The notes under the pieces are model-generated. The model was not told the origin of the DNA. It saw nothing but the letters and a program-made list of their open reading frames with translations, and did not search any database. From Escherichia phage ECML-123-2, in sequence record OL631480: DNA of 64,000 nt. The stretch is one strand, 5' to 3'. The translations under genes and the position numbers were made by a program. Of this stretch, positions 12,741 to 63,162 are shown piece by piece (position 1 is the first letter of the stretch; the number at the start of each line of letters is the position of its first letter).

Positions 12741-12941
12741 ATGGTACAAAAATTAATGGCACTTGTTAATGCCATAAAAGGTAATAAAAAACGTATAGCT
12801 TTTACTATTTCTGCTATGATAGGAATTTTACTTTGGAATTTTGTTTTATCGCCAGTTGCTATTGCTCATGGCGTTAGTATTCCAGTAGTTACTCTTGATA
12901 CATTCGTAGATTTAGCATTTGCTTTGGTTGGGTTAATTTAA
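12741..12941 (+). CDS. small hydrophobic protein on the plus strand
   Basis: 66-aa ORF with textbook SD aaaggaggacatATG; two predicted TM segments; convergent with gene 61. Confidence 0.5.
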   Translation: MVQKLMALVNAIKGNKKRIAFTISAMIGILLWNFVLSPVAIAHGVSIPVVTLDTFVDLAFALVGLI

Positions 12942-13966
12942 ATCTTGGCATATTTAGATAGCCTCATTTTAGCCATTAACCCCTGGGCAATATTATTTTT
13001 CATATATTCCATAATTTGTTCAGGGGTTGCACCTTCCTTTCTAATCATATCATTGACATCTTTTGATTTCCAGGGAGATTTATCCCAAAACATAACCCTT
13101 TCTCCTGCATCAACTAATTTAGTCATTCGCTTAATAGTGTCAGGGTGACGAGGTTCATTATCTAAAACCCACACTCGTCTATCTTTAAATGGAACAACTT
13201 CTAGGTCTAATTGACCACCTGTAATAGCTATACCATTTTCAATAAAAAGTGAATCTATAGGTCCTTCTAGAACATATACATCACCATCTTTAACTCGTTC
13301 AACACCGTAAATTTTTGTTGCCTCAGGATAAGCTTTAATGGTGATATATTTTTGAGGAGCATCTTTCTTTAATGCACGTCCTTGAAAAGACTCAGCTTTT
13401 CCGTTAGCATTATAAATTGGAATAACAAGACGAGGCTCAGGTGTTTCCTTTTTATATGTTCCTGGAGCTATACTATTAACTAATTTAGGCCATTCAGTTG
13501 TAAACCAAAGATATTTCCATTTATCCTTTGGAATACAACGAGCTTTTACATATTTTATAATTGGATGGTCTTCCGCCAATTTATCTAATCTGATGCATGA
13601 CGGAAGAGATTTAATTATTTTCTTCTCAGGTTGTTTAGGAAGTTCTTTAGGTTTTTCTACTGGACGACTTTTACCTTTTTCTTTTCTTATTTCAAAGATA
13701 TACTCACGATATAAATCAGGTTCAAACTCCTTTAAATATATTCCGATTGGTGCATGGTAGTTACAGTTATAACAATGAATATTTCCTTCATTATTATCGC
13801 CATAATACCATCCACGGGCTTTATTTTGATCGGTTTTTGAATCTCCACAAACGGGACATCTAAACCGTAATTTAAAAGTTGAACTATTATTTACTTGTGC
13901 GAATTTAGGTAAATGAGCCAATGCACGGTATGCAAACTCATTATCAATCCAAGGTATTGATGACAT
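12938..13966 (-). CDS. 61: DNA primase gp61
   Basis: 342 aa with zinc-binding CPVCGDS...CYNC and primase core; same size as T4 gp61. Confidence 0.92.
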   Translation of the reverse strand: MSSIPWIDNEFAYRALAHLPKFAQVNNSSTFKLRFRCPVCGDSKTDQNKARGWYYGDNNEGNIHCYNCNYHAPIGIYLKEFEPDLYREYIFEIRKEKGKSRPVEKPKELPKQPEKKIIKSLPSCIRLDKLAEDHPIIKYVKARCIPKDKWKYLWFTTEWPKLVNSIAPGTYKKETPEPRLVIPIYNANGKAESFQGRALKKDAPQKYITIKAYPEATKIYGVERVKDGDVYVLEGPIDSLFIENGIAITGGQLDLEVVPFKDRRVWVLDNEPRHPDTIKRMTKLVDAGERVMFWDKSPWKSKDVNDMIRKEGATPEQIMEYMKNNIAQGLMAKMRLSKYAKI

Positions 13967-13968
13967 TT

Positions 13969-14133
13969 TTACTCTTCTTTTTCTTTAGATTCCTCTTTTT
14001 TCTTTTTAGGAATCTGTTCAGGACCTTTATTTACTACAGCACCTGACGTTGTTCCAGTGGAGATATTTTCAGGATTACCACCTGAATCTCCAGCTACCAT
14101 ATCTTCTTTAATAAATTCTTTATATGTTTTCAT
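13969..14133 (-). CDS. small protein (54 aa) at the 61.1 position, not in ORF track
   Basis: MKTYKEFIKEDMVAGDSGG...KKKKEESKEKEE; start overlaps the gene 61 region. Confidence 0.4.
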   Translation of the reverse strand: MKTYKEFIKEDMVAGDSGGNPENISTGTTSGAVVNKGPEQIPKKKKEESKEKEE

Positions 14134-14134
14134 A

Positions 14135-14761
14135 TTAACCTCTATTCATAAAAGCATTAAAAATTTGGTCATCAATAGAAACATCTACTTTAGACTGTTT
14201 TTCTGATGGTAATTCATATCCACATATTACAATTTTGTGATCAATATCAAAATACACAGAAGCAATATGATTAATGATGTTTTCAGTAAAGTCTAAATCA
14301 ACATCAATATCTTTTTGACCACAGCCCAAAGGATAAATAATGCGAGTAATTCGATTATCTTTAACAAAGATTCCACCGACATACTCTGTGCTGCGTTTAA
14401 AGTCTACACGCCGACGAAATGAAAAATATTCAGGCTCTTTATGAGCTCGGCTCATAGGGCACAACGAATAACTAGAATAAGAGATGTCAAATCCTACGCC
14501 TTCAATATGAACTAAATTGTCATGATTAAACCAATTATAATCATATGCCAAGTCCATTAGATTGTCATATGTGAAAGGCACCGGATTAACATCATTGGTC
14601 ACAAGCATATAATTAGCAACTGCTATAATTTCATTATTTTTAACGAATACAAACCGTGATTGATGTGAATGACCTGGACCTGCGTTTTCACGATTAATGA
14701 TATAACACTGGGCACCTTTATATTTGTACGTGTCTTTACACTTGTGCATTTGATAAAGCAT
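14135..14761 (-). CDS. hypothetical protein at the 61.2 position (the T4 gene reported as anti-DarT factor AdfA, by position only)
   Basis: 208-aa ORF, second gene after 61 towards 41. Confidence 0.6.
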   Translation of the reverse strand: MLYQMHKCKDTYKYKGAQCYIINRENAGPGHSHQSRFVFVKNNEIIAVANYMLVTNDVNPVPFTYDNLMDLAYDYNWFNHDNLVHIEGVGFDISYSSYSLCPMSRAHKEPEYFSFRRRVDFKRSTEYVGGIFVKDNRITRIIYPLGCGQKDIDVDLDFTENIINHIASVYFDIDHKIVICGYELPSEKQSKVDVSIDDQIFNAFMNRG

Positions 14762-15054
14762 TATTCACCTACCACTTCAGCGATGATATTTTTATTATTA
14801 AAGTTTTTATCGCAATACAGAACATAATTATACTGCATTACACCACCAGACTTAAGCTGTTTTTGCACTTCAGCTTTCATTTCAGGACGATCACGCTCAA
14901 CGATATTCATAATATCCGCTTCAATTTGAATTTCAACTTCAGTCTGATCTGCAGTCATAGACCATTCGCACAAATCTTTGTCATAACCCGCCATAGCAGG
15001 CTGAGCAGCGCAAGAAGATAAAGCAAAAATTGCAGCAAAGATAAATTTTTTCAT
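14761..15054 (-). CDS. secreted 97-aa protein at the 61.3 position, Spackle-like by position and size
   Basis: MKKFIFAAIFALSSCAAQPAMA signal peptide; 97 aa equals recalled T4 Sp size. Confidence 0.6.
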   Translation of the reverse strand: MKKFIFAAIFALSSCAAQPAMAGYDKDLCEWSMTADQTEVEIQIEADIMNIVERDRPEMKAEVQKQLKSGGVMQYNYVLYCDKNFNNKNIIAEVVGE

Positions 15055-15114: not shown

Positions 15115-15372
15115 TTATTTTAAAACTTCTGCATAATCACATGTTACAAACTGTTTCTCTAACTTGGCGATTTTACGAAAGTATCTTTTGCATTGACGAA
15201 TCTGTCGCTTTGTAGGGCGCACAGCAAACTTAATAAATTCCACTCGACCAAATGGAGGGCTTTCTTCTGCCGGAATATCTAATACTAATTCCCACGTATC
15301 TGCAATAAGTGCTTTGAATTGAGTATTTTTCCTGACATTATACGGAGTAGGTTTAAATAAAACGATATGCAT
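15115..15372 (-). CDS. hypothetical 85-aa protein at the 61.4 position
   Basis: internal ATG at 15372 has SD gagga; longer track ORF overlaps dmd. Confidence 0.5.
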   Translation of the reverse strand: MHIVLFKPTPYNVRKNTQFKALIADTWELVLDIPAEESPPFGRVEFIKFAVRPTKRQIRQCKRYFRKIAKLEKQFVTCDYAEVLK

Positions 15373-15373
15373 A

Positions 15374-15556
15374 TTATCCTCGGCAATCCACTTCACATAC
15401 CTTCTTGTCATCAATGAAAGCTTTAACTAGTGCTTTATTAACTTCAGCATATTGAGTAGTAGCCCATTGAACGTCATCTTTCATCATTGTGATCTCTTTA
15501 GTAAACATGCTTTCATTCTTAAACCACCCCATAAAAACTACCTTTACCAATTCCAT
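15374..15556 (-). CDS. dmd: Dmd-like antitoxin (discriminator of mRNA degradation)
   Basis: 60-aa ORF MELVKVVFMGWFKNES... directly downstream of gene 41, as T4 dmd. Confidence 0.65.
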   Translation of the reverse strand: MELVKVVFMGWFKNESMFTKEITMMKDDVQWATTQYAEVNKALVKAFIDDKKVCEVDCRG

Positions 15557-62612: not shown

Positions 62613-63086
62613 TTATTTGATTTGTTTAGCAGACCAAATGCGGTCTTTAATAATTTTTTGGATGTCTTCAACATACTCAAGAGAGTGAACATGTGGGTTA
62701 TCTTTGAAACTATAAGCACGAGCTAGCTTTTGGCCTTCAGTTTTGATTACTAAAAGCTCTTTAAGGATAGCTTCATATTTGGAGATAATTCCTTTAACAA
62801 TATTTTTCTCTTGTGTGACTTTAGGATCTGCTTTAGGAGCAGGTTTACCTGAAGCCTTTGCAAAAGCAGCTCCAGTAGCAACTAAACTTTTCCAAGCCAT
62901 ACTAACTGCATTCCCTGTAAATCCTTCGGCTTTCATATCACGAGCAAATTGGAATCGTGATTCATCGGAAGCATCTTTATAGGAATATTTACCCGCGGCA
63001 ATGGCAGCTTTTGCAACAGCTTGAATTTCAGTGCTAGATGCTTCATTTAACACCGCTTCATTTAAAAATTGAGTATATGATTTCAT
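62613..63086 (-). CDS. internal-protein-like protein with capsid targeting sequence
   Basis: 157 aa from ATG at 63086; N-terminus MKSYTQFLNEAVLNEA resembles T4 internal-protein CTS (MKTYQEFIAEA, cleavage after L-x-E). Confidence 0.55.
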   Translation of the reverse strand: MKSYTQFLNEAVLNEASSTEIQAVAKAAIAAGKYSYKDASDESRFQFARDMKAEGFTGNAVSMAWKSLVATGAAFAKASGKPAPKADPKVTQEKNIVKGIISKYEAILKELLVIKTEGQKLARAYSFKDNPHVHSLEYVEDIQKIIKDRIWSAKQIK

Positions 63087-63130
63087 CTTATTTCCTGTTT
63101 TAATTTGTAGATTTAATATACTAATATTTA

Positions 63131-63162
63131 TACCAAAAAGCCCCAACCTTTCGGTCGGGGCT
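63131..63162 (-). terminator. second copy of the same terminator hairpin, upstream of the internal-protein-like gene
   Basis: agccccaacctttcggtcggggct, near-identical to 62581..62604. Confidence 0.55.

Follow-up and report, generated by a model that had tools for sequence, protein, structure and literature searches.

Few morphogenetic pathways have been studied as thoroughly as T4 head assembly, and engineers use the capsid targeting sequence (CTS) to load capsids with foreign proteins. In a 64,000-nucleotide (nt) stretch of DNA from Escherichia phage ECML-123-2 (sequence record OL631480; the whole stretch is called the window below), a short open reading frame (ORF) next to the primase gene 61 encodes a protein of 54 amino acids (aa), gp61.1, whose first residues look like such a targeting sequence. 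A first-pass annotation of this DNA had pointed to the resemblance and proposed that the small, lysine-rich product could be packaged into the capsid and injected. We asked how specific the resemblance is, what the remainder of the protein is related to, and which role these features suggest. The most informative feature of gp61.1 is one that the first-pass annotation had missed, namely its homology to the major capsid protein gp23.

Match of the gp61.1 N-terminus to the capsid targeting sequence

The ORF had been delimited exactly: positions 13969-14133 on the minus strand encode, from an ATG start, a protein of 54 aa with the sequence MKTYKEFIKEDMVAGDSGGNPENISTGTTSGAVVNKGPEQIPKKKKEESKEKEE. 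Only 1 nt separates the ATG from the end of the gene 61.2 stop codon, which makes an N-terminal extension impossible. The window is of Tequatrovirus type, with the region 12900-14800 being 99.6% identical to Escherichia phage EC101 and approximately 98% identical to many T4-like phages. In T4, the orthologous gene is 61.1 (NP_049649, MKTFKEFIKED..., 52 of 54 residues identical), annotated as "gp61.1 hypothetical protein", and hundreds of T4-like phages carry gp61.1 proteins that are 96-100% identical. The gene had been described as lying after gene 61. It is indeed adjacent to gene 61, but upstream of it in the direction of transcription.

The decapeptide MKTYKEFIKE at the start of gp61.1 is identical in 8 of 10 positions to MKTYQEFIAE, the CTS of both IPII and IPIII as read from the T4 genes, and the identities include positions 4, 7, 8 and 10. 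According to a review of Black's mutagenesis work, positions 4 and 7 of the CTS matter for targeting, and positions 8 and 10 for processing (PMC9026906). Other CTS-bearing starts in T4 are MKTFKEFTST...ITE in IPI and MELITELFDE in Alt. T4 gp61.1 and IPI have MKTFKEF in common, and the first 22 nt of 61.1 and ipI are identical. The lysine residue in position 5 is known from genuine internal proteins, because an IPIII-like gene of phiR1-RT starts with MKTYKEFL. gp21 prefers an I/L-x-E motif (PMC12991175), and Ile8-Lys9-Glu10 of gp61.1 fits this motif, the cleavage itself being a prediction.

Scoring of all ORF starts in the window against the CTS (2317 starts, ORFs of at least 20 aa) singled out gp61.1 with 8/10 matches. 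The runner-up reached 5/10, and all others had at most 4. By our own estimate, an 8/10 match is expected by chance in about 0.002 of window starts. A loose pattern (M[KE]x[YFIL]xx[FLVIM][ILVMF]xE), applied to T4 (152 kb, 1420 ATG frames of at least 40 aa), returned only Alt, IPII, IPIII and gp61.1. Judged by sequence, the first-pass annotation was right about the resemblance to the internal-protein CTS, which is genuine, specific and much closer than chance would produce.

We considered whether the match arose by gene conversion between 61.1 and the ip genes, or from a cassette common to both, and found no support for this past the first codons. No similarity was detected between the DNA upstream of 61.1 and the DNA upstream of the ip genes, and the 61.1 start of phage dhabil differs from the CTSs of the internal proteins of that phage.

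The runner-up with 5/10 matches is an internal-protein-like gene that starts at 63086 on the minus strand. The 157-aa ORF (62613-63086) begins with MKSYTQFLNE/AVLNE (slashes mark known or predicted cleavage sites here and below), a diverged CTS that includes an L-x-E motif. The ORF matches phrog_2280 (unknown function). A perfect late-promoter box, TATAAATA, is located at 63125-63132 on the same strand, about 40 nt upstream. The ORF is probably the internal protein of this phage at the ipII/ipIII locus, with a sequence unrelated to T4 IPII and IPIII.

Relationship of gp61.1 to the major capsid protein gp23

BLASTP aligned residues 2-38 of gp61.1 with residues 57-93 of T4 gp23 (43% identity, E = 1e-8). 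A hidden Markov model (HMM) of 31 positions, built from 42 members of the 61.1 family and run against 3070 six-frame ORFs of T4 and the window, aligned end to end with gp23 residues 63-93 (E = 6e-9), the next best ORF having E = 1.2. In a profile search of all PDB sequences only gp23 chains were retrieved (E = 2.3e-5), and for a distant 61.1 member from an Acinetobacter phage the best PDB match was also gp23. When 2.3 Gb of phage DNA were searched by tblastn, the matches likewise extended to a genuine gp23 gene, over residues 56-96. The gp23 homology of gp61.1 is confined to gp23 residues 57-93.

The register of the alignment places Glu10 and Asp11 of gp61.1 on Glu65 and Ala66 of gp23, that is, on the two sides of the maturation cleavage site (LTE/A). 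Moreover, F59, F62, L63 and E65 of gp23 coincide with the critical CTS positions 4, 7, 8 and 10. The spacing of these F, F, L and E residues is conserved in all five gp23 sequences that were compared, each from a different genus (T4, RB69, phiR1-RT, KARL-1 and a Pseudotevenvirus). The CTS may be a copy of the end of the gp23 propeptide. In T4, gp23 residues 56-65, which precede the maturation cut, read AQAFGSFLTE (record L003, 35110-35139).

Residues 66 to about 90 of gp23 constitute the N-fist of gp23*, which is disordered inside the prohead and adopts a fold on the outer surface after expansion, where it contacts four subunits and helps to form the Soc site (PMC9958956; PMC9546572). In the prohead, gp23 has its N-terminal region turned inward, where contact with the scaffolding core is thought to occur; the head-length mutations A66D, A94V and G97S map to that region (PMC9546572). 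The residues shared by the 61.1 module and the gp23 N-fist follow the pattern G-D-x-G-x-N-x-x-N-I-A-x-G-x-T/S-x-G-A-V/I-x-x-x-G-P.

At the DNA level, the 61.1 module and gene 23 are 49.5% identical, with only 10 of 37 third positions identical and with saturated synonymous sites, which rules out that the module was duplicated from gene 23 recently. Strong purifying selection acts on both the 61.1 module and the gp23 segment. We conclude from these alignments that gp61.1 residues 8-38 and gp23 residues 63-93 are ancient paralogues; the gp23 segment comprises the prohead-protease cut site and roughly the first 28 residues of mature gp23*. We also considered whether the 61.1 module co-varies with the gp23 N-fist of the same phage, and rejected this: the N-fist is almost invariant and insertions or deletions in 61.1 are not mirrored in it, as exemplified by phiR1-RT, where 61.1 has an insertion that is absent from gp23.

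Several databases name 61.1 homologues "major capsid protein" or "major capsid domain-containing protein". This label is misleading because gp61.1 has 54 aa and no HK97-fold A and P domains (the AlphaFold2 (AF2) model is mostly low-confidence coil). The gp23 relationship is new here; in automatic annotation the similarity is reflected only as the misleading name. Neither the short nor the long forms of 61.1 discussed below matched Pfam or NCBIfam, and in the literature library that was searched, no paper gave a function for gp61.1 or mentioned its relationship to the CTS or to gp23.

The characterization of the product as lysine-rich is correct in numbers (10 lysine residues among 54), but the implied basic character is not: the net charge is -1, and for residues 11-54, without the decapeptide, it is -2 with an isoelectric point of about 5.0. 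In the AF2 model, residues 4-13 form a helix and the remainder is mostly low-confidence coil (predicted template modelling score 0.18). According to these predictions, processed gp61.1 (residues 11-54) would be a 44-residue, net-acidic and largely disordered peptide of 4.6 kDa. The idea of a basic injected cargo akin to the internal proteins is unsupported by these properties.

Short and long forms of the 61.1 family

The 61.1 family spans the Straboviridae. By tblastn, the module was found in 1485 phage records, with Escherichia, Klebsiella, Acinetobacter, Aeromonas, Vibrio and others as hosts. In all genomes that we inspected (the window, T4, RB69, RB16, Aeromonas phage 65, KARL-1, VH7D, phiR1-RT and dhabil), 61.1 is directly upstream of the primase gene 61 and on the same strand. 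In profile searches, the window gp61.1 matched phrog_1823 (E = 7e-34) and phrog_2086 (E = 2.6e-16), and it contains the complete family module, [LIMV]-x-E-x-MVAGD...NIA-x-G-T-T-x-G-A-V-x-N-x-GP, followed by the basic tail.

The module is nearly invariant across genera with an identity of otherwise 50-60%. With cleavage-site nomenclature (P1 and P1' for the residues before and after the predicted cut), all 42 aligned members have glutamate at P1 and one of L, I, M and V at P3. The [L/I/M/V]-x-E motif is kept in the presence of 2-residue insertions (KLNE, KLTE) and wherever the site is located, whether 10, 12 or about 110 residues into the protein.

In most genera, 61.1 is a long form of 120-166 aa, in which a helical N-domain of about 110 residues precedes the C-terminal module (phrog_2086). 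AF2 predicts the N-domain of the long form to be helical, residues 20-70 having a predicted local distance difference test score in the 80s; compared with the PDB by Foldseek, this model had no match at E<=0.001. Tequatrovirus and several sister genera have the short form only, and no trace of the long-form N-domain was found in T4 or in the window. About 500 Tequatrovirus-type records carry the 54-aa ORF intact and with 95-100% conservation. Short forms start with M[KL][TS][YF][KN][ED][FV]... (for example MKTYKEFIKE, MKTFKDFINE, MKSFKEVMNE, MKTYKEFVKLNE and MLTYNEFIRLKE), the sole exception seen being P0016 (MTILQQYLDSLNE). We propose that T4-type phages lost the N-domain, and kept or gained a minimal CTS in its place.

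In the RB69 reference (NC_004928; L004 2199-2665), 61.1 is split by a frameshift into ORF032c, which comprises the N-domain half and a frameshifted tail, and a 92-aa "61.1". IMG/VR contigs that are nearly identical to RB69 (L025, L026) have one intact 61.1 ORF of 155 aa. The split gene is either a real pseudogene or an error in the reference sequence.

The long-form N-domain (phrog_2086 / phrog_18642) is also found, with very different C-termini, in no fewer than 1742 clusters (50% identity). Its fusion partners include Lys/Arg-rich tails and a region matching phrog_2859 and phrog_11358, in proteins of up to 490 aa (P0047-P0196). Where the context of such distant proteins is visible (e.g., L015 8001-8909, L016 8001-9413), they are located in T4-like replication modules and not among head genes.

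Late-promoter motifs and particle proteomics

In at least five lineages, a perfect late-promoter box TATAAATA precedes 61.1 at a distance of 21-35 nt, within an otherwise early/middle replication cluster. These lineages are the Dhakavirus-type phages, the MKTFKDFINE group, the MKTYKEFVKLNE group, Tegunavirus (long form) and the phages with a 245-aa form. Examples are dhabil (L018 1480-1487) and phiR1-RT (L010, upstream of 6965), and further records with the perfect box are L030, L033, L050, L056-L058, L060-L063, L066, L067 and L070-L072. Acinetobacter phages and others have a one-mismatch variant upstream of 61.1. The box itself appears to be conserved, because the surrounding upstream sequences differ between groups. 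A late box in this position would also drive late transcription of the downstream primase gene.

In the window, TATAAATA is present at the soc gene and at the internal-protein-like gene (63086). The octamer TATGAATA, at -17 relative to 61.1, is a one-mismatch variant near the position of the perfect box in the sister genera. On this strand, one such variant is expected about every 1.2 kb from their observed frequency, and this one is probably non-functional or a chance match.

Purified particles of phiR1-RT have been analyzed with liquid chromatography coupled to tandem mass spectrometry. Gp036, the gp61.1 of this phage (160 aa), was identified with 9 unique peptides, 61.9% coverage and a score of 44, which is above the scores of many baseplate and neck proteins and well above those of carry-over enzymes (PMC6893735, Table S3). 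The papers on the phages fPS-2 and fHyAci03 contain no virion proteome, and fHy-Eco03 is not a T4-like phage.

Possible roles of gp61.1

From what was directly observed, i.e., the CTS match, the gp23 homology in register with the cut, the family-wide I/L-x-E type motif, the synteny, the late boxes of sister genera and the particle mass spectrometry of phiR1-RT, we infer targeting, cleavage and a fate for the released peptide. The reading that we tentatively favor, as a serious possibility that falls somewhat short of being probable, is that gp61.1 would be a prohead-targeted gp21 substrate that is recruited and cleaved. Recruitment to the prohead core and a gp21 cut are suggested because a gp21-type site precedes a gp23-like segment, and in gp23 this segment faces the core and bears the head-length mutations. 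The presence of a minimal CTS in place of the lost N-domain would fit the idea that the part ahead of the cut serves delivery. That gp61.1 would also be retained in the virion and injected, a possibility raised in the first-pass annotation, we consider unlikely.

In this scheme, gp61.1 would be present while the scaffolding core assembles, and the N-terminal decapeptide would act as a CTS to bring the protein into the prohead. The gp23-like segment may contribute by binding the gp22 core, in the way supposed for its counterpart in gp23. gp21 would then cut after Glu10 (IKE/D), as it cuts gp23 after Glu65 (LTE/A) and IPIII after Glu10 (IAE/A). In the long form of phiR1-RT, Gp036, the corresponding predicted site reads LE/SMVAGN. 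The disordered peptide so released would bear the conserved KK[KR]K patch, and might leave the head, stay on the DNA, bind the lattice or be injected. The predicted tryptic products would distinguish the two states: uncut protein would yield EDMVAGDSGGNPENIS(T/I)GTTSGAVVNK, and cut protein, with Asp11 at the N-terminus, DMVAGDSGGNPENIS(T/I)GTTSGAVVNK.

Several observations weigh against a prohead-targeted substrate, and the first-pass suggestion of functional targeting is only partly borne out. P1' in the 61.1 family is Asp, Glu, Ser, Ala or Asn, and not the usual Ala or Ser. The dhabil 61.1 start, MKSFKEVMNE, is unlike the CTSs of the internal proteins of the same phage (MKTYQEF, MKTYNEFLNE), and the AF2 model of the long form places the predicted cleavage site inside a helix. 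No TATAAATA late promoter was found on the coding strand between 11241 and 52554 of the window, and none upstream of 61.1 in T4. The gene is located in a counter-defense cluster and not at an internal-protein locus. The T4 61.1 transcript has been classed as early, and the protein was undetected in a whole-cell time-course proteome (PMC9697503, Table S2). Non-detection is weak evidence, because gp61.1 yields only one good tryptic peptide. Early transcription would be compatible with a head role, because the ipII and ipIII transcripts are likewise classed as early in T4 (PMC9697503, Table S2) and the head-assembly gene 40 is in the same early cluster. Carry-over of phiR1-RT Gp036 into the particle preparation is possible, because gp57B, gp32 and lysozyme were found at similar levels (PMC6893735). 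Finally, the PDB profile search revealed no chain matching gp61.1 in solved T4 head structures, and within the literature library that was searched, gene 61.1 was met only in genome tables, and no paper assigns the protein to the head.

Early transcription in T4 and the missing late promoter would be natural for a cytoplasmic mimic of the gp23 N-terminus, made early as an unpackaged decoy or competitor, with the CTS likeness as a by-product of descent from the gp23 cleavage-site region, the more so as the gp23 residues just ahead of the cut already have the CTS key positions. Such a protein could act by blunting a host defense that senses either the major capsid protein or gp21, the prohead protease. 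It could also engage a partner of the gp23 N-terminus (scaffold, chaperone) ahead of the appearance of gp23. Host systems that sense gp23 (Gol/Lit, PMC3014915) or gp21 activity (the cyclic oligonucleotide-based antiphage signaling system CBASS, PMC12991175) do exist. The neighbors of 61.1 are adfA (61.2, anti-DarT), sp, tifA (61.4, anti-ToxN) and dmd (anti-RnlA), in a region that has been termed an anti-toxin-antitoxin island and whose remaining genes have been called attractive candidates (PMC9391042). However, in RB16, KARL-1, VH7D and Aeromonas phage 65, 61.1 is found beside the primase gene with no dmd, tifA or sp annotated adjacent to it, several genera have a late promoter motif directly upstream, the phiR1-RT orthologue was found in particles, and a decoy does not obviously require the invariant [L/I/M/V]-x-E. 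Overall, we judge the mimic to be rather unlikely. The Lit-activating Gol peptide, which lies just C-terminal to the gp23 stretch that is homologous to gp61.1, is absent from gp61.1, and a Lit/Gol decoy in particular was therefore rated as unlikely.

The residues conserved in the 61.1 module are those shared with the gp23 N-fist, and both copies are under strong purifying selection although their synonymous sites are saturated. This could also reflect an accessory role in head assembly, in which the gp21-cut peptide is not injected, but serves as an N-fist in trans, binding the expanded lattice where a gp23 N-fist is lacking (beside gp24 vertices or the portal) or tuning the gp23-scaffold contacts that set head length. 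The N-fist contacts with four subunits, its part in the Soc site and the head-length mutations in the region would suit such a role. On the other hand, near-atomic T4 heads contain no chain that matches gp61.1, no unassigned density is reported in the text consulted on the head structure (PMC9546572), and covariation with the gp23 N-fist is missing, as the phiR1-RT insertion illustrates. We regard this as improbable. Very improbable, in our view, is a decaying remnant, i.e., the 3' leftover of a degraded long gene with a chance CTS-like start and no function of its own. The N-domain is gone in Tequatrovirus, RB69 could be taken as a frameshift-split intermediate, and part of KEFIKE may be inherited, because the helix before the cut in the long form already reads KEIFKE. 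Against this stand the intact and conserved ORF, its Shine-Dalgarno (SD) sequence and coupling to 61.2, the near-invariance of the module across divergent genera, and the low chance expectation for the CTS match given above.

The favored prohead-targeted substrate can be extended to the whole family. The 61.1 proteins might be an unrecognized head-pathway component in all T4-like phages, each a free-standing gp23 cleavage site and N-fist that is brought to the prohead by the N-domain or, in T4-type phages, by the 10-residue CTS, is cut by gp21 and acts in trans. The CTS would then have evolved as a copy of the last residues of the gp23 propeptide (P7 being F/Y, P4 F, P3 L/I and P1 E). The peptide might fill N-fist sites at gp24 or portal vertices, use its basic patch to tether DNA, or, once injected, serve as a decoy derived from the capsid. 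We put this forward as a long shot.

If gp61.1 is a CTS-bearing gp21 substrate, an overlooked, family-wide player derived from the capsid protein would be added to the head pathway. The CTS would be linked to the gp23 propeptide junction via the same four key positions, suggesting how it is recognized, and a testable function would be at hand for a gene that is present in essentially every T4-like genome and now labeled "hypothetical" or, wrongly, "major capsid protein". If the protein is a decoy instead, it would represent a new kind of counter-defense by capsid-protein mimicry.

Features of the locus and neighboring genes

The elements of the locus are collected in Table 1. The SD sequence of 61.1 lies inside the last codons of 61.2, and 61.2 and 61.1 are therefore tightly coupled.

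Table 1. Elements of the 61.1 locus and their positions in the window
Feature	Position	Strand	Remarks
Gene 61 (DNA primase)	12938..13966	-	Directly downstream of 61.1
Gene 61.1 ORF	13969..14133	-	54 codons, stop at 13969-13971; Tequatrovirus short form of the 61.1 family (phrog_1823)
Tail EQIPKKKKEESKEKEE	13972..14019	-	Codons 39-54; basic cluster KK[KR]K in all lineages, then acidic residues in T4-type phages
Conserved module IKE/DMVAGDSGGNPENISTGTTSGAVVNKGP	14020..14112	-	Codons 8-38; by alignment paralogous to gp23 residues 63-93 (LTE/AEIGGDHGYNATNIAAGQTSGAVTQIGP), i.e., maturation site and N-fist
CTS-like propeptide MKTYKEFIKE	14104..14133	-	Codons 1-10; aromatic residue at 4, Phe7, Ile8-x-Glu10; predicted cut after Glu10
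Gene 61.2 (adfA, anti-DarT factor)	14135..14761	-	Directly upstream of 61.1, same early transcription unit; name from PMC9391042
Shine-Dalgarno sequence GAGG	14139..14142	-	-9 to -6 from the 61.1 ATG, within the final codons of 61.2 (adfA)
TATGAATA	14143..14150	-	One-mismatch variant of TATAAATA at -17; perfect box at -21 to -35 in sister genera

Two further observations concern the surroundings. Between dam and gene 61, a 66-aa hydrophobic ORF (12741-12941, plus strand) is encoded on the strand opposite to all its neighbors. It is called a "putative transmembrane protein" in one related record, and the T4 RefSeq entry has no gene there. The tifA/61.4 orthologue (15115-15414, minus strand) is listed with 99 aa and a TTG start, overlapping the end of dmd; the T4 annotation has 85 aa, and the true start in the window is probably an internal ATG.

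Comparison with known systems

Like the T4 internal proteins IPI, IPII and IPIII, gp61.1 has a decapeptide of the MKT[YF]xEF[IL]xE type that ends in an I/L-x-E gp21 motif, and is small, non-essential-looking and variable in length. Unlike them, it is encoded outside both internal-protein loci (next to e/denV or 57B), between 61.2 and 61. In T4-type phages it has no late promoter, is net acidic, and would be 44 aa long after the predicted processing. Its body is gp23-homologous and conserved family-wide, whereas the bodies of internal proteins are hypervariable.

A second comparison is with the prohead core proteins gp67 and gp68 and the scaffold protein gp22, small gp21 substrates with I/L-x-E sites that are cut to short peptides in the prohead, some of which are retained in the head. 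Unlike 61.1, which is found in the early replication/counter-defense region, their genes are in the late head cluster 20-67-68-21-22-23, and there is no sequence similarity. gp61.1 shares its early cluster and its character as a small accessory protein with the anti-toxin genes dmd, tifA/61.4 and adfA/61.2. It has no sequence relationship to them, and is conserved far beyond the examined phages that carry them, staying with the primase gene.

The long-form 61.1 proteins (phiR1-RT Gp036, RB16 61.1 and the KVP40-type proteins of 159 aa) are true orthologues in the same place upstream of primase, with the same module, [L/I/M/V]-x-E motif and basic tail. They differ from the window gp61.1 by the helical N-domain of about 110 aa in place of the decapeptide, and phiR1-RT and the 245-aa form (L050) have a perfect late box, several others having the one-mismatch variant. 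With gp23 (residues about 57-93), gp61.1 shares F/Y-x-x-F-L/I-x-E before the cut and G-D..N-I-A-x-G..S/T-G-A-V/I..G-P after it. Unlike gp23, it has no HK97-fold body, and ends in a short basic tail where gp23 continues with the N-arm and its remaining sequence. By its sequence relationships, gp61.1 is thus homologous to gp23 yet not a capsid protein, and is a clear member of the 61.1 family (phrog_1823 / phrog_2086).

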